Part shown: positions 1 through 26,546 of the stretch, piece by piece | Layout: each line of letters starts with the position of its first letter | Numbering within the stretch: position 1 is the stretch's first letter | IMG/VR virus record: IMGVR_UViG_3300032330_001742 | Location: 52,065-116,064 of that record | Length of the DNA stretch: 64,000 nucleotides | From: a virus | Taxonomy: Duplodnaviria; Caudoviricetes | Reading direction: 5' to 3' (one strand) | Made by a program: the position numbers and the translations under genes | The notes under the pieces: generated by a model | The model's input: only the letters and a program-made list of their open reading frames with translations | Databases searched by the model: none | What the model was told of the DNA's origin: nothing

Positions 1-2
1 GT

Positions 3-269
3 TTTGATAAACTGGTATCAGGTAATACAGGTGAATTAGACAGGCTTAGCGATTATGTTGGATCCAAGGTTGTCTTAAAGGATATTGAAAAGAGTAAAAA
101 GAAGTACAACGATGGTATAGTATTTCTTGGAGATCCTAACTTATGGAAGACCATTGTGTCTCAAGAGATAGCATCAGAGGTTGCAAAGATATTTCCAGAG
201 TACGATATGGAAACCTACAATCCATCACCTGTAGATGGTGATTGGCTTTTTAAACAACTTCTGGTATAA
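3..269 (+). CDS. 5'-truncated hypothetical protein
   Basis: Open frame from the window edge (FDKLVSG...FKQLLV) to TAA at 267-269. Confidence 0.6.
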   Translation, partial: FDKLVSGNTGELDRLSDYVGSKVVLKDIEKSKKKYNDGIVFLGDPNLWKTIVSQEIASEVAKIFPEYDMETYNPSPVDGDWLFKQLLV

Positions 270-275
270 TATATA

Positions 276-331
276 TACCTGCCTAAAAAGGGGGTACAAA
301 TAACTTATTCGCTTGAAAGGGGAATAATATG
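276..331 (+). promoter_or_regulatory. ROSE-like RNA thermometer 5' UTR of hsp20, after extended -10 TGGTATAAT (262-270)
   Basis: Hairpin TTATTCGCTT/AAGGGGAATAA (305-327) sequesters the SD with a UCGCU motif; second hairpin 276-296. Confidence 0.6.
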
Positions 332-733
332 ATGAAAGCAACACTGGATCTTTTTAATGATCCATTCTTTAATACCTTTAGCACAATTGCAAAGGTTCAA
401 AATACAACAAACTATCCACCTTATAATCAAATTAAAATAAATGACAAAGAGTATATTCTTTCATTTGCTTTGGCTGGTTTTACTAAGGATGATGTTTCTA
501 TTTCGCTAGATAACCGAACGCTCACAATTCGTGGTGATCGAAAGGAAATAGAATTACCAGAGGGTGCAGAGTATCTACATCGTGGAATTGCAGCACGTAA
601 GTTCACCGATATCTTTACCCTTCCTGAGTTTGTTGAAGTTGTGGGTGCGGATTTTAAAGATGGCATTTTAAATGTTAAACTTGAAAAACAAATCCCAGAA
701 GATAAACTACCGAAGATCATTGAAATTCAGTAG
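329..733 (+). CDS. hsp20: Small heat shock protein (Hsp20/IbpA family)
   Basis: YPPYN, ALAGF, YLHRGIAARKF, A.FKDGIL.V.L alpha-crystallin motifs. Confidence 0.95.
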   Translation: MMKATLDLFNDPFFNTFSTIAKVQNTTNYPPYNQIKINDKEYILSFALAGFTKDDVSISLDNRTLTIRGDRKEIELPEGAEYLHRGIAARKFTDIFTLPEFVEVVGADFKDGILNVKLEKQIPEDKLPKIIEIQ

Positions 734-745
734 TACAATGTAATT

Positions 746-862
746 GTCGGGGGAGACAGCGACATTAAATACCTGGTATGCCTCACGTAGGACCTTGGGA
801 TGGATTAGTTACCTATTCTATACGACCTGGGCCATTGTGCTTGAATCGCCTACGTGGGGCTC
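746..862 (+). ncRNA. Putative structured small RNA
   Basis: -10-like TAGTACAAT upstream; GTCG/CGAC hairpin; 12-bp stem GCCTCACGTAGG/CCTACGTGGGGC enclosing internal hairpins; GC-rich intergenic. Confidence 0.45.
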
Positions 863-889
863 TTAATATTTTGCGGTATAATATTATTA

Positions 890-1156
890 ATGACTAACAA
901 AGAGTTAGAGACATATAATAAGCAAGAGTATAAAAGAAAACTTGCTAAGATAAAAGAAGATTCTGGCTGTGTTGATTGTGGTGTATCTAATCATATAGTT
1001 TTAGATTTTGATCACCTTAGAGATAAAAAATATAATATATCAAGAATGATTCATGATGGTTTTTCTTGGAAGGCTATAAAAAAAGAAATAGAAAAGTGTG
1101 AAGTAGTATGTGCAAACTGCCATAGGGTGAGAACTCATAATAGGTTGACAGCGTAA
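890..1156 (+). CDS. HNH-like zinc-binding endonuclease family protein
   Basis: CVDCG...LDFDHL...KCEVVCANCH; leaderless ATG about 7 nt after TATAAT. Confidence 0.75.
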   Translation: MTNKELETYNKQEYKRKLAKIKEDSGCVDCGVSNHIVLDFDHLRDKKYNISRMIHDGFSWKAIKKEIEKCEVVCANCHRVRTHNRLTA

Positions 1157-1418
1157 ACAATTTAGTATACAATTAGAGTATACAAAGGGAGAATTATGAT
1201 ACACGCACTATTTCTTATTCCAGCATTTATAATGGGGTATGTAGCCTGTTATGTTGCAATGACTTATAAAGTAGATCAAAACTAATGCGTTCTGATTTTA
1301 TTGACGCATCTAATAATAATCTTAAAACATGTATGAAATGTTTAGACGATTCTAATGATGAAAATTTTTGGGAAAATCATCAGGAGATGCGTGACAATAT
1401 TATTTGGTGTGTTTCCAA

Positions 1419-1495
1419 AGGGCAGTAGTTCAGTTGGTTAGAGCACCACTCTTATAAGGTGGTTGTCGTGGGTTCAAGTCCCACCTGCCCTACCA
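1419..1495 (+). tRNA. tRNA-Ile(UAU)
   Basis: Acceptor AGGGCAG/CTGCCCT, anticodon arm CCACT-CT TAT AA-GGTGG, T loop TTCAAGT, ACCA end. Confidence 0.92.
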
Positions 1496-1496
1496 G

Positions 1497-1570
1497 TTCC
1501 CCTTCGTATAACGGCAATACGCCACCCTTTGGAGGTGGTCATCGTGGTTCGAATCCATGAGGGGAAGCCA
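1497..1570 (+). tRNA. tRNA-Gln(UUG)
   Basis: TTCCCCT/AGGGGAA acceptor, CCACC-CT TTG GA-GGTGG, TTCGAAT, GCCA end. Confidence 0.93.
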
Positions 1571-1591
1571 ATACTATGGTATAATTTTTAC

Positions 1592-2041
1592 ATGGAGTCA
1601 CTACTAAACATGCTTAAAGTTTTGCTTGCAGATAACATTACCCTTAAACTTAAAGCCCATGGCTATCACTGGAATGTTGAAGGAGATGATTTTCTTCAGT
1701 ATCATGAACTTTTTGAAAACATTTATACAGATTATGATGGTGCAACAGATACTTATGCTGAATGGCTTCGCAAGTTAGATACATATGCACCATTTAAACT
1801 TTCTCGCTTTATTGAACTTAATGAAGTTGGAGAACCAGATGTAACTTCAGATCCAATGATGATGGCAGCAGATTTACTTATGGCTAATGATATGGTTCTT
1901 TCTAAACTTATGGATGCTTTTGATATGGCAACAGCACAACGCCAACAAGCACTTGCAAACTTTTTTGCAGAAAGAATGGATATGCATCAAAGATGGCATT
2001 GGATGCTTTCGGTATCACTAAAAGAAGTAGGTATGGATTAA
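1592..2041 (+). CDS. dps: Dps/ferritin-like DNA protection protein
   Basis: KAHGYHWNVEG..F..YHELFE..Y, D.YAE.LR, H....WML; leaderless start 6 nt after TGGTATAAT (track start 1463 overlaps tRNAs). Confidence 0.9.
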   Translation: MESLLNMLKVLLADNITLKLKAHGYHWNVEGDDFLQYHELFENIYTDYDGATDTYAEWLRKLDTYAPFKLSRFIELNEVGEPDVTSDPMMMAADLLMANDMVLSKLMDAFDMATAQRQQALANFFAERMDMHQRWHWMLSVSLKEVGMD

Positions 2042-2577
2042 TGTCTGATTGCTGTCCAGAAATAATTAGTAAACAAGATCCATGTTGGGATGGTTATGTT
2101 CAGCGTGGCATGAAAGAACAAGGTGGAAAGATGGTTCCTAACTGTGTTCCTTCAGAAAAATCAGATGCACCTATGGATGTTGCTAATAACCCAACTATTA
2201 GTGACCCAACACCTGCAGCACCTAATGGATTAGGAATGAAAAGACCACAATACATGTTAAATCAAGCACGTCCAACAAAGCCCCTTAAAATTCACAATAA
2301 GCCTGGTGTAGATATTTGGGCTGGATCTGCTTTTGGATCAAAAAAGTATGACGAAATTGTAAAAGATAATCCAGTAATGCCAACTGACACATATCAGGTT
2401 CCCGAATATGATGGTTGTGGTTGTGAAACATGCATGGAACTAAATGTAAATTGTAATAATTGTCCTGTCTGTGGACCAACACAAGTAAATGATGTTTCAG
2501 AACTTGGAAAAAGTATTTTTAATTTAGAAACAGCAGCATCATTAATAACTAAACAAACAATAAGATGGGATAAGTAA
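2041..2577 (+). CDS. Cys-rich hypothetical protein with PCWxGY...GKMVPNCV motif
   Basis: ATG overlaps dps stop; motif recalled from large-phage proteins. Confidence 0.65.
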   Translation: MSDCCPEIISKQDPCWDGYVQRGMKEQGGKMVPNCVPSEKSDAPMDVANNPTISDPTPAAPNGLGMKRPQYMLNQARPTKPLKIHNKPGVDIWAGSAFGSKKYDEIVKDNPVMPTDTYQVPEYDGCGCETCMELNVNCNNCPVCGPTQVNDVSELGKSIFNLETAASLITKQTIRWDK

Positions 2578-2723
2578 TGCCAAAAAAGAAAGCGGGATCT
2601 TTTAACGATACTCAAATTAAGGATGGCTGGATAGTTAAGATTCGTAAAGATGGAACTATTAAGTCTAAAGTAGAAAGATACTTTAATAAAACTACACAAC
2701 TAAAACCAAAATCAGAAAGATAA
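2577..2723 (+). CDS. Small basic hypothetical protein (48 aa)
   Basis: TAATG coupling; MPKKKAGSFNDTQIKDGWIVKIRKDG. Confidence 0.55.
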   Translation: MPKKKAGSFNDTQIKDGWIVKIRKDGTIKSKVERYFNKTTQLKPKSER

Positions 2724-2729
2724 CTAGCC

Positions 2730-3749
2730 ATGCGCTTAGATAAAAATGGCATTGGAATTAATGATTCTGGTAAAGAGTATCTTTGGGATTTAACATATCA
2801 GTCAATATCATCTATAACAACTTCTGATTTAGATTTTTTTCATTTAACTTGGGCAAAAGATCCAGAAGGAATAGAAGAAAAATTTAATAATGCTGACAAT
2901 AGCATACATGGTAATACAAATGGTTATCTTCCAACGCTAATAAATTCAAAATATAATTATAGGTTTAAAGATACATATCATGTTTTAGATTGTGTTCCAG
3001 TAGATTGGGCAAAAGATAGAAATAAAGACAGACAAATAGAATATAGGTATAACTCTGATTGGTTTAGATCTGATCATTTTAAAAAAGAACATACAGGTAT
3101 ACACGTTTTGTTTTCTGGATGTTCAAATACAGAGGGTATTGGCGCTAACATTGAAAATACTTGGTCTCATATGTTATATAAAAAGATGTCAGAACAATAT
3201 TATATGGATGGATACTATAACCTTGGTCAAAGTGGTGCAGGAATTGAGTCGATAATTCATAATATAACAAAATATATTAATGAGTATGGAGCACCAAATT
3301 TTATATTTTTACTACTTCCGAATATACTGCGTGGTTGGAAATGGAATGAGGAAGAGTCCAGATGGTACTACCATCAAGATAATCCTTGGGAAGATAACCC
3401 AGTAAAAGAAGAAACAATTAAAAAGCATAGAGATAGGTTTCCTACCTGGCTTTTTACAATGAGTATGTTTTTAAATTATTGTAAGGATAAAGACATTAAG
3501 GTAATTTGGAGTACATGGGATACTTGGGAAACAGATAACTTAAAGTATGTTAAACAATTTGAGAATACCTTTTTGCCAATTTCAAAAATTACCATGGAAG
3601 ATATAGAAACAAAGTACATTGATCTAATAAAAAGAGAAGATGCTATGGAAGCCAGAGATGGACATGATGGATATATAACACAAACACACTGGTATAATCA
3701 TTTTAAGGAACTACTTGTTGCAAGGGGAACACTAAATGATAATAATTGA
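2730..3749 (+). CDS. SGNH/GDSL hydrolase-like protein
   Basis: YNSDWFRS, FSGCSNTEG, NLGQSGAG, C-terminal DGH. Confidence 0.65.
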   Translation: MRLDKNGIGINDSGKEYLWDLTYQSISSITTSDLDFFHLTWAKDPEGIEEKFNNADNSIHGNTNGYLPTLINSKYNYRFKDTYHVLDCVPVDWAKDRNKDRQIEYRYNSDWFRSDHFKKEHTGIHVLFSGCSNTEGIGANIENTWSHMLYKKMSEQYYMDGYYNLGQSGAGIESIIHNITKYINEYGAPNFIFLLLPNILRGWKWNEEESRWYYHQDNPWEDNPVKEETIKKHRDRFPTWLFTMSMFLNYCKDKDIKVIWSTWDTWETDNLKYVKQFENTFLPISKITMEDIETKYIDLIKREDAMEARDGHDGYITQTHWYNHFKELLVARGTLNDNN

Positions 3750-3831
3750 TTCAATAAGAAATATTATAAAAAAAAGAAAATTAAAAAAAATATTAAAAGA
3801 AATTAACAAACCAAGAAAGTATATCTACTAA
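3736..3831 (+). CDS. Small Lys-rich peptide ending in YIY
   Basis: MIIIDSIRNIIKKRKLKKILKEINKPRKYIY*, abuts both neighbours. Confidence 0.5.
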   Translation: MIIIDSIRNIIKKRKLKKILKEINKPRKYIY

Positions 3832-4458
3832 ATGTTAAGGGTAAACTCTTTCCCAAGAACCGCTAATATTTTTGTCTCTGGTTTTTTGCAGCAGTTTTTT
3901 ACAATAGAAGACAAAACATATACACCACAAACTATGCATGACCTAAGTTTGCTTGACAACAAAGAAGTAAAACAAATAGTTATTATAAGAAATCCAAAAG
4001 ACTGCATACCATCTTTTGAAATATTAAAAAAACTAAGTGATGAATATTGTGAAGAGCCAATTTTATATGCCATAAACGAATGGATTCGGTGGCATGAAAA
4101 AGTAATTGAAAATTCAGACCACTTGTTTTTATTTTCTTTTGAGCAAATCATCAATAATCCAGTAGACTGCTTAGTATCTGTTGCTGATATAAATAAAATT
4201 AAATACATGCCAAAATATGAAATGCACAATCACCATGGCAGATGGGTTAATGCAAAAACACAACTGGGACCAGATGATTCAATTAGAAGCACATCAAAAA
4301 ATAGCAAAGAGTATCAATCAAAAGTGGATGAGTATTTCAATCAAGATCCAGAAATTTTGGAAAGAGTAGAATTGCTTTATTCTAAATTAAAAGAAACCAT
4401 CATTATAAATCAAAAATTATTTGGAATAAAAATAAAAGAAATGGGGAAAAATGAATAA
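3832..4458 (+). CDS. Sulfotransferase-like/P-loop hypothetical protein
   Basis: SFPRTAN and IIRNPKDCIPS resemble PAPS-binding motifs. Confidence 0.5.
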   Translation: MLRVNSFPRTANIFVSGFLQQFFTIEDKTYTPQTMHDLSLLDNKEVKQIVIIRNPKDCIPSFEILKKLSDEYCEEPILYAINEWIRWHEKVIENSDHLFLFSFEQIINNPVDCLVSVADINKIKYMPKYEMHNHHGRWVNAKTQLGPDDSIRSTSKNSKEYQSKVDEYFNQDPEILERVELLYSKLKETIIINQKLFGIKIKEMGKNE

Positions 4459-5230
4459 AGGAAAACTTTTTTTAGTAGGAATGCCAATTGGTAATTGGGA
4501 AGATATGTCTGTCAGAGCATACAATTATATTAAAAATGCAAAAAATATTGTTATCGAAAGAGAAGAAGCCTTTAGAGAAATTTGGCCTGCTTTAAATTTA
4601 GATAGAAGTGATGCAAATATAATATCTATTGAGTTTGAATCAAATGAAGGTGAGCCCACAGGGATTCCATATGAACTGCATAATGCAGGAAAGATACTTG
4701 ATTTATTAAACAATGGAGAGGACGTGTTTGTAGTTTCTGATGAAGGAATGCCAGGAGTAGCAGATCCTGGAGCACACATCGTGGCAGAGGCAATTAAAGC
4801 AGGGGTAGAAATAACAGCAACACCTGGTCCTTCAGTAGTAATAGCAGCAGTTTCAGTTACTGGAACAATGCATAATTTTACTTTTGATTCATTTTTACCA
4901 TTTGAAAGAGAAGACAAAAGAGAATTTCTTAAACAAAGAGCAGGACTTGCAACCCCACTTGTTTTAGTATTAAGGACAGTTAAAAATACAGATGGACCTA
5001 ATCCAGTATCTATTTTTAGCAATGAAATTCCAGAGTTTTTAGAGGATGCCTGTGAAATATTTGGATCCAATAGGCATGCAGCACTTTGTTACAATTTAAC
5101 AAGAAAAGATGAAAAGGTAGTAAGAGGAACACTCAAATATCTTAAAGATTATTTTGCTACAGAGGAAAAAAATTTACGTGATCAGATCACTGTAGTTATT
5201 GATAAGAAGTTTGGATCAATGGCTATCTAA
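4451..5230 (+). CDS. rsmI: RsmI-like tetrapyrrole-methylase family SAM methyltransferase
   Basis: LFLVGMPIGNWEDMSVRA, VSDEGMPGVADPG, PGPS, LTR.DE.V.RGT. Confidence 0.8.
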   Translation: MNKGKLFLVGMPIGNWEDMSVRAYNYIKNAKNIVIEREEAFREIWPALNLDRSDANIISIEFESNEGEPTGIPYELHNAGKILDLLNNGEDVFVVSDEGMPGVADPGAHIVAEAIKAGVEITATPGPSVVIAAVSVTGTMHNFTFDSFLPFEREDKREFLKQRAGLATPLVLVLRTVKNTDGPNPVSIFSNEIPEFLEDACEIFGSNRHAALCYNLTRKDEKVVRGTLKYLKDYFATEEKNLRDQITVVIDKKFGSMAI

Positions 5231-19102: not shown

Positions 19103-19318
19103 TTAATTATAGGGGTTTGAGTTGATTTTTACAAGGTTTGAAGGTGTGATACTAATCACAGGAGCCATCTGCTCAGGTTCTACGGCGGTACGGGTAACGA
19201 AGGTATCAATACCACATACACAGCCTGGATCCATCACGGGAGCCTTATTAGTAATAACCTCAATAAGAGAGTCACACTCAGTACATAGATAACTATACTT
19301 AGTCCACATATTATTCAT
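19103..19318 (-). CDS. Hypothetical zinc-ribbon protein
   Basis: Y.CTECD...CVCG. Confidence 0.6.
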   Translation of the reverse strand: MNNMWTKYSYLCTECDSLIEVITNKAPVMDPGCVCGIDTFVTRTAVEPEQMAPVISITPSNLVKINSNPYN

Positions 19319-19731: not shown

Positions 19732-20754
19732 TTATGCGATTTGCATAACGTTTTGTACAACTTTAAGCAAACGATTCTTCTCTGCGTTAATTGCAGGGTC
19801 AAATCCACTTGCAGATGCTAACATGCTTTCATTGTTACCACCACGTGCAGAGCGATACCAATCAAGGCGTTCTGTAAGTGCATTAAATGCACCCCATGCG
19901 TTACCAGCAATCATACCATTAAATTCACCTGTGTAGATGTCGTTAATTGTATCGATTTTGTTTTCCCACTTAGTTAGCGCACCCTTTGCATCTTTTTCAG
20001 GCTTTGGGTATGCAGCGAGAATGATGTCATTGAAAGACTTAGCATTTACTTCTTTTTCAAAAAGTGCTTTAGCCATAACATCGAATTCGTCCATGTAAGC
20101 ATTAGCAAGACCAAGAGTCTCACGTGCAATTTGAACTTTTCCATTTGCTGTCTGTGTGTGGCGAATCTTGAATGATTGCTTGATATTCTTATTCTTCTTG
20201 CGACCAACGCCACCAAGAGCAAGATTAAGAGTATTAGCGCAAACAACACGAACAGGTGTGATGCTTGCTTGAATTGCGATTGAGCCATCGTGTGATGTGT
20301 TGATGAGCAAATAAGTTTTTACCTTATCTGCAACACCGCTAGGGTCTAGAACTGTCTCACGCTCAAGAGCAAGAGAGCCAAATACTACACGCCCACCCTT
20401 GATTGAACCAGCAGTTTCCCAACGTCCACCACCATCGAGAATGTTATCACCAAATGAAAATAAATCTTCATTCTGCAATGGGTGATAGCGTTCACCAACG
20501 ATTCCCAAAATATCTGTCTGGGTGTTATCTGTAGGGTTAGTACGCAAAACGTACTGATACGCCTTGTCGCTTGTTAGATGTGATGGGGCTTCTAAATCTT
20601 CAAGACGAACATTCCAACCATTAAGATTTGCTGCTTCGAGCATTTCTGTGGTAGACTTTTCTTCTGTGAAGACTGTACCCAATCCATGCCATGCAGGCTC
20701 ACGAAATGATGCAAAAGATGCTACGCCATTTTGTGTTTCGAGGTCATGTGCCAT
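19732..20754 (-). CDS. DUF932 / phage-plasmid TIGR03299-like protein
   Basis: REPAWHGLG, WETAGSIKGGR, YLLINTSHDGS, TPVRVVCANTL, IRHT. Confidence 0.88.
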   Translation of the reverse strand: MAHDLETQNGVASFASFREPAWHGLGTVFTEEKSTTEMLEAANLNGWNVRLEDLEAPSHLTSDKAYQYVLRTNPTDNTQTDILGIVGERYHPLQNEDLFSFGDNILDGGGRWETAGSIKGGRVVFGSLALERETVLDPSGVADKVKTYLLINTSHDGSIAIQASITPVRVVCANTLNLALGGVGRKKNKNIKQSFKIRHTQTANGKVQIARETLGLANAYMDEFDVMAKALFEKEVNAKSFNDIILAAYPKPEKDAKGALTKWENKIDTINDIYTGEFNGMIAGNAWGAFNALTERLDWYRSARGGNNESMLASASGFDPAINAEKNRLLKVVQNVMQIA

Positions 20755-20970
20755 GAGTTTCCTTCTTTCTGTTGTTGTTAATATAAGTATACATGCGCCC
20801 ACTGACAATGTCAAATAGGCTACGTAATGATTGGGGCAATTCAGACATTTCTTAAAGGTGATCTTAAACACAGTGTGATATTGATCACATGGGGCCGACT
20901 CAAAATTTTAAGGTTTTTAGAGGGGCCAGTTTTAATTCATGGCCCAGGAATTTGTTTAGTAGTCCCCCTA

Positions 20971-21381
20971 CTAAAAATCAATTCTGTCGACTGTAGCGCT
21001 AAGCCACGTGATGTTGTCAGAATTATAAGATACAGATTCAAAATCGATATCGTTAACAATTGATTCTACATCTTCGTCATATGGCACCTGAACTGTAACG
21101 TTGTAAGTAACTGAGACCTCAACTTCAACTTCCTTGGTAAGTTCAAAGCCCATTATTTCTGCAATTTCATTTGCTTGGTTTTCTGTAATTGCATCACGTT
21201 CTAGTTCTGCTAGCGTCCAGTGTTGCATGCCCTCTACCATACGGTTACGGTCCGCTGAATCAGAATATGAACGTTGGTTTAACCGCTGAATGAATTCATC
21301 CTTAGATGTAATTGACTCCTGCAGTGCAGTGATTTGTGTTTTGAGAAACTCTTCTGTTGCATTTACTATTGTTTGGTCCAT
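20971..21381 (-). CDS. Hypothetical protein (coiled coil + acidic C-terminus)
   Basis: Start MDQTIV after GAAAG SD. Confidence 0.65.
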   Translation of the reverse strand: MDQTIVNATEEFLKTQITALQESITSKDEFIQRLNQRSYSDSADRNRMVEGMQHWTLAELERDAITENQANEIAEIMGFELTKEVEVEVSVTYNVTVQVPYDEDVESIVNDIDFESVSYNSDNITWLSATVDRIDF

Positions 21382-21624
21382 GGGGGGCCTGCTTTCTGTT
21401 AGTTTGTTTATATTAATTGTACTCGTGGCCACTGACATTTGTCAAGGACCCCTTAGGGTGAGCCTTTTTGGATCGTGCTCAGGATGTCTGCTTCTTTAGG
21501 GCTGCAGTACCCTTGCTCTATAGTATTTCTATAATCGCCCTAATCAGCCTGGCGAATAATGAGAGTTCTTACTTACGACATTGGGCGAGAACACTCTCTA
21601 AACTGCCCCTGTTTCGTTATTTAG

Positions 21625-22047
21625 TTATAGGTAACGAGCAACTGCTTGATAAGTAGAAGTCGAAACTGTTTCCTCATCTGTCATCTGCAAGATACGGATT
21701 GCGTTAGAGATTTCCTCTTTTTGCTCACGATAGTTATAGATAGAGATTGACTCAAAATCCTTTACAGGCTCTTTAGGCAATTCCTTTTCTGCAACTGTGA
21801 TGTCGAAGTCAATGTTTAACTGATTGTTCCAAGAACGATAGTTAGTGCGGAAGTTTTCTGCCTTCTTGATGTTTGCTACTGCATAATCAACAAGTTCCTT
21901 CTGCCAAGCCTTACGAGCCTTTTCATACTTAGCCTCGTTTGCTTCTTGTGATGTGTAATCAAGTTCTAACTTTGCTAGTGCGCCTTCTAGTGCCTTGATA
22001 ACCTTTGGTGTTGCCACCTTTACTGAGATTGCTTTGCTTCGTGCCAT
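21625..22047 (-). CDS. Hypothetical protein
   Basis: SD AAGGA; 140 aa. Confidence 0.7.
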   Translation of the reverse strand: MARSKAISVKVATPKVIKALEGALAKLELDYTSQEANEAKYEKARKAWQKELVDYAVANIKKAENFRTNYRSWNNQLNIDFDITVAEKELPKEPVKDFESISIYNYREQKEEISNAIRILQMTDEETVSTSTYQAVARYL

Positions 22048-22126
22048 TTGGGTCTGTTTCCTTTTCTATTAGTTGGGGGGTGAGTGAGTAGTTTAATTAT
22101 CTCATACTCAGGAGATTTTTGTCAAT

Positions 22127-22294
22127 TTACTTTGCTGTCCAAGTTGTGTAACGAGGCTTTCCATCAACATCAAGTTTTACACGAACACTCTGTCCGTTCT
22201 TGTTTGGTGTGATTTCAAGAATTGTTCCTGTTACCTTTGACTTCTGTGTTGTGAACAAGTCGCCAACCTTGTAAGTTGCTGTATTTACTGCCAT
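22127..22294 (-). CDS. Small SH3/KOW-like protein (not in ORF track)
   Basis: MAVNTATYKVGDLFTTQKSKVTGTI...; own promoter and SD. Confidence 0.65.
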   Translation of the reverse strand: MAVNTATYKVGDLFTTQKSKVTGTILEITPNKNGQSVRVKLDVDGKPRYTTWTAK

Positions 22295-22367
22295 TTGTTT
22301 ATTTCCTTTTCTGTTAGGGGTTTTTGCTTACTGTATTAGTTTAACATTTTTTGGGGAAAATGTCAAA

Positions 22368-22538
22368 TTACTTAGAGGTCTTAACCATAGCCAAACGGCG
22401 TGAGCCATTTGCCAAGACTAGGCTAACTCTGGTAACCTTGTTACTGATTGGTGAGAAACCTGCGATACGACCTGTAACGCCTGTTTTGCTTGTTGTGAAC
22501 AAGTCACCAATTTGGTATGTGTATCCTGAGATTGTCAT
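22368..22538 (-). CDS. Small SH3/KOW-like protein, paralogue of 22127-22294
   Basis: MTISGYTYQIGDLFTTSKTGVTGRI... Confidence 0.65.
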   Translation of the reverse strand: MTISGYTYQIGDLFTTSKTGVTGRIAGFSPISNKVTRVSLVLANGSRRLAMVKTSK

Positions 22539-22768
22539 AGGGGTCTTGCCTTTCTGTTTGGGTTATAGTTTAATTCTACACTAAAAATGTCAAAAATACC
22601 AATCTAAGTGGCATTTTTGGGTGTGATAAAACTCACATCTTAAACAGCGTGTCGTAACTTGACAAGATCAAGATTTTGCGCCGACCCCATTTTCGGGGAC
22701 TTATCAAGTCATTGAATTAAAAATAAATAAAATATTAAGAGTGCAAGCATTAACCAGTACATGTTAAC

Positions 22769-23515
22769 TCATTTCTTACTCGCAGAAAATACAATGTCTG
22801 CTTTAGAGTATACACACAATGAACAAAAAACGCAAGCGCTACCTGCAGTGCTAATAAGTGGAATTGCTTTTTTATTTTCAGGACACTTAGCACCAGGCTT
22901 ACCAATCATTTCTTTCATGTCTGCTTGACCTATTGCGAAATTCTTAGCAAGGTATGCAAGGCGAACACCATTTTTAATTTTAAGGTCAACACCTACTTTT
23001 ACATTTTCGCTATCAGTACTAAAATAAAGAGACAGGTTAGGAATGTCTTTTAAGATAAGTGCTGCAGACTTAACACGTGTATATACCCAGAATTGAATAT
23101 CAGGTTGTTCTTCAATAACCATACGCCATGCGTTGGTATAGTCATCGTTAAAGAAATCTCCGTCCCAGTGAATGCGAAATAGCATAGGGGCGTCTTTCTT
23201 TACACAATCAGTTTTAAACTCAGCAATCATTTCTGAAAGTAGAGTGTACATCGTCTGCAGATCTGAATCTTTAAGTAGGTCCCAGTTATGCAATAGGTTA
23301 GTTTTTACACCCTTGAATAGTTTTTCCAATTTGCCTGCATAGCAAACACTTTCGCAGACAGACGTAGCGCCAGGACATGAATAGTCTTTTCCTGCAGGTA
23401 ATCCGAACGTATTAGCAATTGCGGCTTGCTTTCCATTTTTTGTGACAAGGTTAGCCACCTTTCTATCATTAGAGCGTTTTAATTTAAGTGTAAGTGTATT
23501 AGTAGTCAAGGCCAA
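22769..23515 (-). CDS. Gp88-like Cys-cluster (radical-SAM-related) phage protein
   Basis: FGLPAG..SCPGA..VC...CYA, FRIHWDGDFF, FWVYTR, NLSLYFS.D; exact start uncertain. Confidence 0.75.
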   Translation of the reverse strand: MALTTNTLTLKLKRSNDRKVANLVTKNGKQAAIANTFGLPAGKDYSCPGATSVCESVCYAGKLEKLFKGVKTNLLHNWDLLKDSDLQTMYTLLSEMIAEFKTDCVKKDAPMLFRIHWDGDFFNDDYTNAWRMVIEEQPDIQFWVYTRVKSAALILKDIPNLSLYFSTDSENVKVGVDLKIKNGVRLAYLAKNFAIGQADMKEMIGKPGAKCPENKKAIPLISTAGSACVFCSLCVYSKADIVFSASKK

Positions 23516-23675
23516 GACTCATTTCTAGAGCAATGTCTTCATTATAGGTTGCGGACATTTCTTCTAGCAAGCAATGAGTGCACATTTCTTCTACTTCATC
23601 CACAGCATTTTCATGACATGAAGGACAGGTTGTTGCGTAGTATTCGTCATAGAATTCATCTGCGATATTTCCCAT
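23499..23675 (-). CDS. Small zinc-binding acidic protein
   Basis: SD AGGAG; CPSC...CTHC. Confidence 0.55.
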   Translation of the reverse strand: MGNIADEFYDEYYATTCPSCHENAVDEVEEMCTHCLLEEMSATYNEDIALEMSLGLDY

Positions 23676-23679
23676 GGGG

Positions 23680-23838
23680 CTATTCTCCTTTTTGTTGATA
23701 TTTATATTGTAGCATTTGTGACTGACATTTTCTACCCTTGCGAGTATATGCCTTTTTAGAGGGCACAGCGGAAGCAGCGTTAGACCTACGTAACTCCATG
23801 AGTCTACGTAATTCTTCTTCTGTTTTCTTTTGCGTCAT
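23680..23838 (-). CDS. Small basic protein
   Basis: Leaderless after TTGACA...TAGGAT; ELRRSNAA...KKAYTRK. Confidence 0.55.
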   Translation of the reverse strand: MTQKKTEEELRRLMELRRSNAASAVPSKKAYTRKGRKCQSQMLQYKYQQKGE

Positions 23839-23949
23839 ATAACTATCCTAACACATAGGGGAAAAAATGTCAACTTCTTAAATGTGATTAATCTCACATG
23901 CGACACGCCGTCGGAGTCGGCTTGCATTTTTATGCAGAGTGATGAATTT

Positions 23950-24192
23950 TTATTCTTCTATATCTTCATCATGCGGATAGTATAAATTAAATGTTGCGTA
24001 GTCATCAACTTCAATTAAATCTGATTCTTCATAGTTATCTAAATACATTATTGCATAACCATCAGATAGTGGAGTAATGCCAACTACCTGCACAATTTCT
24101 CCATTGACTGAAATAAAATCATCAACTTCTAATTGATCAACGTTGAGTGTATCTACTTTTTTGAAATCCATAGTTTTTATTCTATCACCCAT
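23950..24192 (-). CDS. Hypothetical beta-rich protein
   Basis: ORF in operon. Confidence 0.6.
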   Translation of the reverse strand: MGDRIKTMDFKKVDTLNVDQLEVDDFISVNGEIVQVVGITPLSDGYAIMYLDNYEESDLIEVDDYATFNLYYPHDEDIEE

Positions 24193-24195
24193 TTT

Positions 24196-24486
24196 TTATT
24201 CCTCATCTTCTTCTGGGTTAATAAACCAATCAAGGTGGTGCTGTTCAATAATTGCCCACGCAGGTGCTTGCTTGCTACCCTTATAAGTAATTTGAAATTC
24301 ACCAACCATTGGCATATCAATCATTCGATTAAAGTCTTCTTCATAGGCTGCATCAATAGCATCTATGCAAGGCTTCACCATTTCTGCGGGGACAGGTGGA
24401 TAGTGATTACCTTTAAGGTGATAAAGTAACTGTGTTTCTAAATCAAGGACGCTATCTGCTAATCCAATTGCTGTAACTGAACCCAT
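24196..24486 (-). CDS. Conserved phage hypothetical protein
   Basis: HL.GNHYPPVP...AIIEQHHL. Confidence 0.7.
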   Translation of the reverse strand: MGSVTAIGLADSVLDLETQLLYHLKGNHYPPVPAEMVKPCIDAIDAAYEEDFNRMIDMPMVGEFQITYKGSKQAPAWAIIEQHHLDWFINPEEDEE

Positions 24487-24487
24487 A

Positions 24488-24697
24488 TTATTTCACGCTC
24501 ACATTTCCGTTGCGGTAGAAAGTCTTAGTGTACATCTTGCCAGTAGGGTCTGACAAGTTATAGGTTGCATATTCTTTAGCGTCACCAAAGTCTACACACT
24601 TATTCCATGCAGATACCATTTCAAGCATATCTGCACTTCGTGTTGTTGATACAAGTTCTCCGTCATAGGAGATAGTTAGTGAGTAGTTATATTCCAT
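24488..24697 (-). CDS. Hypothetical protein
   Basis: Coupled ORF. Confidence 0.6.
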   Translation of the reverse strand: MEYNYSLTISYDGELVSTTRSADMLEMVSAWNKCVDFGDAKEYATYNLSDPTGKMYTKTFYRNGNVSVK

Positions 24698-24840
24698 TAG
24701 TTAGCCTCTTTCGTTGTAAATAGTGCACCCTCATTAAGTAAGCCTAATTCTAAATTAAACTTCTCATCTTCATTTGCTTGCGCTAAGTCTATCCAACCTG
24801 CGCCATCGTTGTCAATTCTAAATATTTCTACATATCCCAT
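24697..24840 (-). CDS. Small hypothetical protein
   Basis: SD GGAG; MGYVEIFRIDNDGAGWIDL. Confidence 0.55.
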   Translation of the reverse strand: MGYVEIFRIDNDGAGWIDLAQANEDEKFNLELGLLNEGALFTTKEAN

Positions 24841-24843
24841 TAT

Positions 24844-25044
24844 TTATTCTCCTGTCTTTACTGCAATAGTGCGGAATGCGTATCCACCCATAGGCTTGCG
24901 TACTTCTACAAGATAACTTTCGCAATCTTGATACCAAACTGCATGAGGGTGCTTTTCTGCGGAGATAATTTCTCCTGTTAAAGTATTTGAGTAATACTGA
25001 GTTCCTACTAATAGGGACTCGATAGAGTAGACATTTGCTGACAT
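24844..25044 (-). CDS. Hypothetical protein
   Basis: Start MSANVY after GAAGG SD. Confidence 0.6.
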   Translation of the reverse strand: MSANVYSIESLLVGTQYYSNTLTGEIISAEKHPHAVWYQDCESYLVEVRKPMGGYAFRTIAVKTGE

Positions 25045-25324
25045 AGGGGTTACCTTCTTTTCTTTTGTTGATACTAGTATCCTATCAGATAGGGCTGACA
25101 TTTCCTAAACGACACGCCGTAACGATAGAATCTTTCTTTATTTATTTTTTCTTACTATGTAAGTCTAGCCTATAATGTCAAAAATATCAACTTACTAGCG
25201 AGTATTCTTAAATAATGAGACGCTCAAACTGTGTGAGAAAAATCACATCGTACGTAAACCACGACACGCCCGAGTGCGTCGGCCCCAAAAATGAGCAGTT
25301 TTAGATCATGCTCAGGATTTTATT

Positions 25325-25477
25325 TTATTTTCGGGAATCTAATTCGTTATAGAGTTCATTTAGTTCACGACGCAAATAAAAATTATCTACCATCGCATAA
25401 CTGATAACAACAATTGAACCAATGAGTGCAATTAACACAGCCCATACAGTTCCTAAATCAAAATAGTATTTATCCAT
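25325..25477 (-). CDS. Small membrane protein
   Basis: MDKYYFDLG + TM helix. Confidence 0.5.
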   Translation of the reverse strand: MDKYYFDLGTVWAVLIALIGSIVVISYAMVDNFYLRRELNELYNELDSRK

Positions 25478-25649
25478 TTTTTTCACAAGCCTCTCTGAAT
25501 TTTTCATAGTTAAAGTTTGGATTATCTGCAAAAAACATATCTCCAAAATCAGCGACCAAATCTTCAAAAACAACTTGGTCAATTAGATTTACATAGTCGT
25601 TAAGTAAATCAGCAACAGCGATAAAAGTTTTACGAGTATAAATTGCCAT
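25470..25649 (-). CDS. Small hypothetical protein
   Basis: TRKTFIAVADLL...F.ADNPNF..EKFREAC. Confidence 0.6.
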   Translation of the reverse strand: MAIYTRKTFIAVADLLNDYVNLIDQVVFEDLVADFGDMFFADNPNFNYEKFREACEKNG

Positions 25650-25831
25650 TACTTAGCAACTCCTCTCAAAGTACCACGAACGCCAAGAGCATCGCAGGAC
25701 ATACGAACAGAAATACCAACAGGCAATTGCTGAGGGTATTGTGAAATAAATTGAGCAACTGCACCCTTAGAAGGCAAGTTGATTTTGGAAGTTGAACCTG
25801 TGAAGGTTTCTAGTGTTATAGTGTAAGTCAT
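25649..25831 (-). CDS. Small hypothetical protein, paralogue of 27347-27541
   Basis: Shared I.L.T..G.T...FI..Y...LP.G..V pattern. Confidence 0.6.
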   Translation of the reverse strand: MTYTITLETFTGSTSKINLPSKGAVAQFISQYPQQLPVGISVRMSCDALGVRGTLRGVAK

Positions 25832-25891
25832 TTATTGACTACCTTTCTTTAGTTTGTTTATTAGGATAATTGTATCAGAGGGGACTGACAT

Positions 25892-26047
25892 TTACAAGCA
25901 ATTTATGCAATTGCATTGCTTAGAGCGTAGAAGGTAAGCAAGTACCTCTTTACGAGTGTAAGTATCTAGACCATATGAGGACTTTACTCCTCCGTTATGG
26001 TACTCGTGTACGATAGTAGAGAATAATTCTTCTGTTAGTGTAGTCAT
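25892..26047 (-). CDS. Small hypothetical protein
   Basis: SD GAAAGG; ends CNCINCL. Confidence 0.55.
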   Translation of the reverse strand: MTTLTEELFSTIVHEYHNGGVKSSYGLDTYTRKEVLAYLLRSKQCNCINCL

Positions 26048-26159
26048 TTTAGACCACCTTTCTTTGTTTGTTTATATAATTATATTATAGCAGGGGGGTC
26101 TGACATTTAGGGGGGTACAAAACGGACATATGGGATAAAGGGGATTGTGATGTACGTCA

Positions 26160-26210
26160 TGTGGATAACTTAAGCGTAACTTAAGGGTGTGATGTGCATC
26201 ATGTGGATAA
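26160..26210 (-). promoter_or_regulatory. Two DnaA boxes at the divergent promoter junction
   Basis: TGTGGATAA at 26160-26168 and 26202-26210 in a 42-bp tandem duplication. Confidence 0.55.
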
Positions 26211-26262
26211 CTTGAGTCGGCTTTTTGTGGTGTAGATCACATACAATATACGGCGTGTCGAC

Positions 26263-26546
26263 TTGACTTTTTGACATTTCTGTGCTATACTTCTAGTATA
26301 AAGAAAATAAAGAAAGGAGTTCAAATGAACTCACTGTTTGAAAATAGAAATAACCTAGGCTCTGCCTTTCCTCTCACCCCTTGCGATACCTGCGGAGGTC
26401 TCACAGCATGGACACGATGTGTCATGTGCGGTGGACAATTTGACCTCCATTGTCCACAAGGTAAGAACTATGTGGGCTAAATCACATAGAAAATGTCCGA
26501 ATTGTCCGTGTCTAAACTTGACTTTTTGACATTTCTATGCTATACT
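26263..26546 (+). promoter_or_regulatory. Two near-identical sigma70-type promoters
   Basis: TTGACT-TTTTGACATTTCTRTGC-TATACT at 26263-26291 and 26518-26546. Confidence 0.75.
26325..26480 (+). CDS. Small zinc-ribbon protein
   Basis: SD AAGGAG; CDTC...CVMC. Confidence 0.5.
   Translation: MNSLFENRNNLGSAFPLTPCDTCGGLTAWTRCVMCGGQFDLHCPQGKNYVG

Follow-up and report, generated by a model that had tools for sequence, protein, structure and literature searches.

Which factor reads the hexamer TGTCAG that stands exactly 10 nucleotides (nt) ahead of a TAnnnT -10 element in six promoters of a bacteriophage? The promoters lie in a 64,000-nt stretch (hereafter the window) of IMGVR_UViG_3300032330_001742 (Duplodnaviria; Caudoviricetes), a CheckV-complete IMG/VR virus of 116,064 bp, of which the window is bases 52065–116064. 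An initial annotation had assigned them to PafBC, a DNA-damage activator of actinobacteria. Our sequence comparisons make it reasonably likely that the promoters are of the PafBC type and that host PafBC reads them via sigma adaptation, and that single-stranded DNA (ssDNA) would turn on a DUF932 gene, an operon with a Gp88-family gene and a number of orphan genes. The phage would then probably time these genes with the DNA-damage sensor of its host; we infer both the "early" timing of the phage genes and the identity of that host.

All six sites that the initial annotation had placed on the minus strand were recovered as exact matches, as follows:

P1, 26084–26105, minus strand: TGTCAG-N10-TATAAT with an extended -10 of the TGn type, lacking a -35; it heads the leftward promoters of a divergent control region.
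P2, 25869–25890, minus strand: TGTCAG-N10-TACAAT with TGn and a weak -35, TTGTAA.
P3, 25079–25100, minus strand: TGTCAG-N10-TAGGAT, with TGn and lacking a -35; a canonical TTGACA promoter lies about 85 nt upstream.
P4, 23706–23727, minus strand: TGTCAG-N10-TACAAT with TGn and no -35.
P5, hybrid, 21416–21445, minus strand: TTGACA-aa-TGTCAGTG...TACAAT, with the -35 at an 18-nt spacer (21440–21445) and the -26 element at 21416–21437.
P6, hybrid, 20786–20814, minus strand: TTGACA-t-TGTCAGTG...TATACT, with the -35 at a 17-nt spacer (20809–20814) and the -26 element at 20786–20807.

The pattern TGTCAG-N10-TAnnnT occurred seven times in the window against 0.99 expected, a number reached in 0 of 100 shuffles, and a scan of the whole 116,064-bp genome returned only the same seven exact sites, six of them within 5.3 kb. 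Each of the six is located 35–45 nt upstream of a same-strand Shine-Dalgarno sequence and ATG with an A-rich leader, and the hexamer occupies -28 to -23 when the T of TAnnnT is set at -12. The division into four promoters without a canonical -35 and two with TTGACA was as annotated: P1–P4 carry a TGn extended -10 instead, and in P5 and P6 the exact TTGACA lies 2 and 1 nt, respectively, upstream of TGTCAG. The six promoters fall within a 26-kb block of the minus strand that holds mainly small genes and is transcribed away from the divergent control region at about 26105–26320. The seventh match (4510–4531, plus strand) lies about 60 nt inside an open reading frame (ORF; 4451–5230) and probably fits chance expectation.

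The geometry corresponds closely to that described for PafBC. Chromatin immunoprecipitation of Mycobacterium smegmatis PafBC gave the consensus tGTCgg(N10)tA(N3)T; the helix-turn-helix (HTH) of PafB contacts -23 to -28, with two arginines four residues apart reading the GTC triplet, PafBC slots between domain 4 of sigma-A and the DNA, and the promoters it serves have no -35 (PMC8635444). Binding of ssDNA to the WYL domains activates PafBC (PMC11804915). The phage sites share with the described PafBC/RecA-NDp promoters (PMC8635444, PMC6789036, PMC11804915) TGTCRG at -28 to -23, the N10 gap, TAnnnT, a usual lack of the -35 and a non-palindromic form, and the same motif occurs at recA of actinobacterial genomes of the acI type. 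In the phage, the -26 element was exact and the 10-nt gap to TAnnnT was kept in six of six sites, and a canonical -35 was absent from all except P5 and P6. The proposed identity with the RecA-NDp motif agrees with every feature that could be compared (TGTCRG with only R variable, N10, TAnnnT and, in most but not all promoters, the lack of a -35). Unlike the known PafBC promoters, the phage sites drive small orphan genes, DUF932 and GP88 instead of repair genes, lie in an AT-rich context, strongly prefer A at the R position (92%), frequently have a TGn extended -10 and include some -35 hybrids. They also differ from host recA promoters in having no adjoining LexA box, and dual LexA/PafBC control of the kind found at host recA was rejected for the phage promoters, since the phage has no LexA boxes.

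Comparison with related phages, made on 80 loci around DUF932 homologues and extended to 160 loci, revealed that the element is conserved. The 80 loci contained 621 sites on the coding strand versus 41 on the other strand, with 5–14 per locus. The N10 spacing was found in 383 distinct contexts, versus at most 16 for any other spacing from N6 to N14, and a substitution scan showed that only the change from TGTCAG to TGTCGG was tolerated (35 contexts versus 3 on the opposite strand), the remaining variants being at background. In the 160 loci, TAnnnT followed 73% of coding-strand TGTCRG at exactly N10, compared with 15% on the other strand. The orthologous DUF932 promoter (P6) was kept in 37 of 41 alignable relatives, where TGTCRG and the -10 were retained, the R position was polymorphic between A and G, and the 10-nt spacer varied freely. 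The phage family thus independently reproduced the R degeneracy, which is invisible from the six TGTCAG sites alone. These comparisons show that the element is under selection in the phage family, and the single-base precision of its distance to the -10 across hundreds of diverged promoters indicates that it is read within the RNA polymerase holoenzyme complex. Among the family promoters, 61% had a TGn extended -10 and 39% lacked it, 18% had a -35-like box and 82% had none, and 27% had neither of the two.

The phage genome has a guanine-cytosine (GC) content of 35.9%, and blastn against GenBank phages gave a tRNA as the sole match and no close cultured relative. It encodes a WhiB protein scoring above the Pfam cut-off. 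Phages of actinobacteria are usually recognized by WhiB (PMC6802176, PMC10914622), and its presence here marks the predicted host as an actinobacterium. The other genes include a DnaE-type Pol III alpha, DnaB, primase, RecA, cysC, thioredoxin, Hsp20 and ferritin. More than 400 relatives are present in IMG/VR, many of about 110–119 kb, and copies of relatives turn up mis-binned in lake metagenome-assembled genomes (MAGs), including Lake Mendota bins, which shows a freshwater origin. The phage is an abundant, uncultured, lytic-looking lake actinophage of a lineage common in lakes worldwide. The low GC content and a GenBank phage match limited to one tRNA show that it is not a mycobacteriophage, and a mycobacterial host is not supported for a 36% GC lake phage without a close cultured relative.

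The initial annotation had offered, as a second possible reader, a WYL factor encoded by the phage outside the window. This proposal was rejected: the complete phage genome yielded no WYL, HTH_11, HTH_PafC, Sigma70 r2 or Sigma70 r4 match even at E up to 1 and no match to an acI-type PafB query at E up to 10, and WYL was likewise absent from five further complete relatives. Pfam scans of 142 phage ORFs revealed no regulator other than WhiB among the best 25 families listed (the MotA and AsiA models were not searched directly).

On the host side, a class-level sample of 401 actinobacterial genomes was reduced to 28 small (1.3–1.7 Mb), rhodopsin-positive genomes, mostly complete single contigs with 44–49% GC at the loci examined and four at 58–63% GC; their acI/Nanopelagicales label is based only on size, rhodopsin and GC profile. 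The 401-genome sample includes two genomes marked unpublished (G334 and G336), neither of which is among the 28. WYL proteins were present in all 28 genomes, and 26 contained an adjacent pair of about 300–340 amino acids (aa) each. In the two genomes checked for gene order, a WYL+WCX gene and an HTH_PafC+WYL+WCX gene are followed by tatC, the same order as pafB-pafC-tat in mycobacteria. The first protein of the pair in one genome (G502) gave an end-to-end alignment to PafB of M. smegmatis (PDB 7P5X, 9FND; E 7e-34), and the segment RMFERDK, which holds both DNA-reading arginines, is identical in this protein, the one examined. An exact TGTCRG-N10-TAnnnT was found upstream of recA in 26 of 27 acI-like genomes, with spacers differing between subgroups; the site is usually TGTCAGTGGCGCCTGCTACCTT, and a LexA box starts directly after the -10. 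At this promoter (about 803.5 kb on contig C1 of G502, and 26 other recA loci) the PafBC box and the LexA box form a compact dual-control design. Further sites in G502 lie ahead of carD, of a protease, of a DnaQ-like exonuclease with a leaderless start, and of two loci that also have LexA boxes, namely a LysM gene and a DUF6504/imuB-like cassette. An acI-type genome holds only 11–16 exact sites, so that the motif belongs to a small regulon and is not common to promoters in general.

Islands with 8–9 PafBC-type promoters were found in two acI-type genomes (G565:C1, about 432–460 kb; G412:C1, about 462–510 kb). In the former, most sites are located 6 nt before the start codon of leaderless genes, with one site ahead of a C5 DNA methyltransferase-like gene. 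Phage and host sites have in common A/T at -1 to -3, an extended -10 of the form CTGnTA and a spacer that starts G/C-rich (82–89% G/C in the 36% GC phage). The expectation that the host carries pafBC thus draws on a likely pool, the freshwater planktonic actinobacteria, which has PafBC orthologues and the motif at recA; the predicted host is placed no more narrowly than among freshwater actinobacteria.

A phylum-level sample around an Acidimicrobiaceae MAG did not contribute to the pool and was replaced by the class-level sample. It contained no acI-like genomes, none of its rhodopsin-positive genomes being as small as 1.6 Mb, and the motif was not found near recA in its 29 small genomes. Two genomes with low GC and WYL pairs (G022 and G242) looked unrelated to acI, one of them with a chemotaxis-receptor neighbour. 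Genome tallies made for this work also include the unpublished genomes G003, G020, G050, G084, G090, G122, G150, G176, G228, G241 and G270, none of them among the 28 acI-like genomes.

The mechanism suggested by these comparisons is as follows. Host RNA polymerase with the housekeeping sigma would bind the -10, and the ssDNA-loaded PafBC heterodimer of the host would insert between sigma region 4 and the DNA and read TGTCRG. Possible sources of the ssDNA are the phage genome on entry or after resection, phage replication or recombination (DnaE, DnaB, primase, RecA) and damage to host DNA; the signal would activate DUF932 and the Gp88-family operon together with roughly a dozen tiny orphan genes. 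The hybrids P5 and P6, in which TTGACA is joined to TGTCAG, would probably also fire without PafBC, and expression from the interleaved canonical TTGACA promoters would not need PafBC. With no reader of its own, the phage would use an alarm regulator of the host as its timing switch.

Several observations weigh against reading by host PafBC. The motif is not widespread among actinophages with PafBC-bearing hosts: the five large Streptomyces and Rhodococcus phages nearest by WhiB hold only 0–1 sites, and the motif was found upstream of DUF932 in none of 10 cultured phages of Streptomyces, Rhodococcus, Gordonia, Arthrobacter, Microbacterium and Mycobacterium, several of which have plain TTGACA promoters there. 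A promoter class restricted to one lineage is also expected from a lineage-specific phage factor. The frequencies of TGn and of -35-like boxes given above mean that many family promoters could fire with sigma A alone. The total of exact sites in acI-type genomes was not above that of a backwards-pattern control, so that the host-side argument rests on orthologous conservation and gene identity. Finally, a WhiB search of genome contigs for the host matched only phage contigs mis-binned in MAGs of unrelated phyla, and a 15-kb auxiliary-gene-rich phage segment gave only short low-complexity DNA matches, and no host link, against the 28 acI-like genomes.

The lineage restriction leads to an alternative that we regard as unlikely, in which an adaptor encoded by the phage, a small orphan protein alone or together with WhiB, binds sigma-A region 4 and reads TGTCAG, in analogy to the MotA/AsiA sigma appropriation at T4 middle promoters, the likeness to RecA-NDp being convergence or mimicry. 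The promoter class is limited to this phage lineage among those sampled, the phage WhiB belongs to a family that binds sigma-A region 4, dozens of small phage proteins are unannotated, and a rigid spacing to the -10 suits any holoenzyme-bound adaptor. Such an adaptor, however, would have to arrive independently at the hexamer, at its one degenerate base and at the precise 10-nt gap of a host motif that is already used at recA in the likely host clade. In addition, the domain and PafB searches and the families listed for the 142 ORFs included no HTH, sigma, WYL or PafB-like protein of the phage, and no WhiB-family protein is known to read a specific hexamer.

Transcription by sigma A alone, from extended -10 promoters without an activator and with TGTCAG as a spacer element or as the site of a repressor or another non-PafBC factor, is similarly improbable. 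TGn in four of the six sites and in the majority of the family, together with TTGACA at two sites, favors it, but the 39% of family promoters without TGn and the 27% without either element do not fit, an operator needs no single-base precision to the -10 across 383 distinct promoters, and the element is not general among promoters of the acI-type genomes, as noted above. A decoy function, in which sites on replicating phage DNA soak up host PafBC, blunt repair or defence-island genes and act as promoters only secondarily, is very improbable, because every site has features for which a pure decoy would have no use, namely a promoter-like distance to a start codon and its ribosome-binding site, a place on the coding strand and a conserved -10, although the 5–14 sites per phage genome in relatives and the host islands with clusters of the same promoters before leaderless genes, including the C5 DNA methyltransferase-like one, would suit it.

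Reading by host PafBC thus remains the explanation we favor for P1–P6, which precede the following genes and are interspersed with other promoters:

25892–26047, minus strand: 51-aa orphan gene behind P1, with no PHROG match.
25325–25831, minus strand: behind P2, three small orphan genes of 60, 59 and 50 aa, the third of which looks membrane-like.
23950–25044, minus strand: five small orphan genes behind P3 (66, 47, 69, 96 and 80 aa).
22769–23675, minus strand: 58-aa Cys-rich gene and GP88-family gene (248 aa) behind P4; Pfam GP88 E 3.2e-51.
20971–21381, minus strand: 136-aa orphan gene behind P5.
19732–20754, minus strand: DUF932 gene (340 aa) behind P6; Pfam DUF932 E 1.7e-45.
25181–25154, 23873–23845, 22366–22338 and 22125–22096, minus strand: interleaved sigma-A-type promoters, TTGACA-N16-18-TAnnnT.

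The Pfam matches confirmed the annotated DUF932 and Gp88-like genes behind the promoters, and ten of the small proteins had zero matches in PHROGs. Within this block, the interleaved TTGACA promoters constitute a second class. Two paralogous genes of 55–56 aa (22127–22294 and 22368–22538, minus strand), which share YxxGDLFTT, each have their own canonical TTGACA promoter. A basic 52-aa ORF (23680–23838, minus strand) behind a canonical promoter ends inside P4, which would overlap coding sequence if the ORF is real. Five exact CRP/GlxR-type palindromes, TGTGA-N6-TCACA (window positions 19145, 20874, 22622, 23883 and 25232; 16 nt each), make up the whole-genome total, and all are located inside the promoter block, upstream of promoters. 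Just upstream of P1, two direct copies of a 25–26-nt element, AAGTTATCCACATGAYGYACATCACA, lie 42 nt apart (26146–26213, minus strand) and could be an operator or an iteron. The closest cultured homologues of DUF932 are in Streptomyces phages (NC_042012.1 and similar), with about 52% identity and two copies per record; one copy lies near the left end of these records (1.2–2.6 kb), which may reflect a terminal repeat. One phage ORF, in the region at about 41–57 kb of the genome that includes window positions 1–5230, weakly matched a proteasome subunit in Pfam (E 1.7e-5), a match worth recording in view of the link between PafBC and the Pup-proteasome locus of actinobacteria.

To our knowledge, no role of PafBC is known beyond the regulation of cellular DNA-damage genes, and the literature searched contains no report of PafBC-type promoters on a phage. 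If the assignment is correct, it would be the first known case of a virus exploiting sigma adaptation, and WYL-type ssDNA sensors would be a point of contest between phage and host, at which host islands and phage genes answer the same alarm. We consider it about an even call that the lineage, lacking a transcription factor of its own for this gene class, borrows the host ssDNA sensor PafBC in such a way that DNA entry or replication licenses small, possibly anti-defence genes, perhaps in competition with the PafBC-controlled islands of the host. P1–P6 provide a concrete promoter set for sigma adaptation outside mycobacteria, and because the DNA-reading residues of PafB are conserved, they can be tried in M. 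smegmatis or Corynebacterium, the natural host being hard to grow.

Two known systems invite comparison. The middle promoters of T4 consist of a MotA box at -30 plus a -10 and are read through MotA/AsiA sigma appropriation. In these promoters, as in the phage sites, the place of the -35 is taken by a box set a short, constant distance from a sigma-70-type -10, through which a class of genes is timed. The T4 adaptors, however, are encoded by the phage and remodel sigma region 4, whereas none was found in the lake phage (MotA and AsiA were not searched for specifically) and its box matches the site of a host regulator; its use of PafBC would be a host-encoded counterpart of T4 sigma appropriation. 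The second system comes from conjugative plasmids, whose leading regions carry entry promoters (Frpo/ssi) that are active as single strands; there, the single strand itself folds into a promoter. Unlike in the plasmids, ssDNA in the phage case would act as the allosteric ligand of a host protein, and the promoter would be ordinary duplex DNA.

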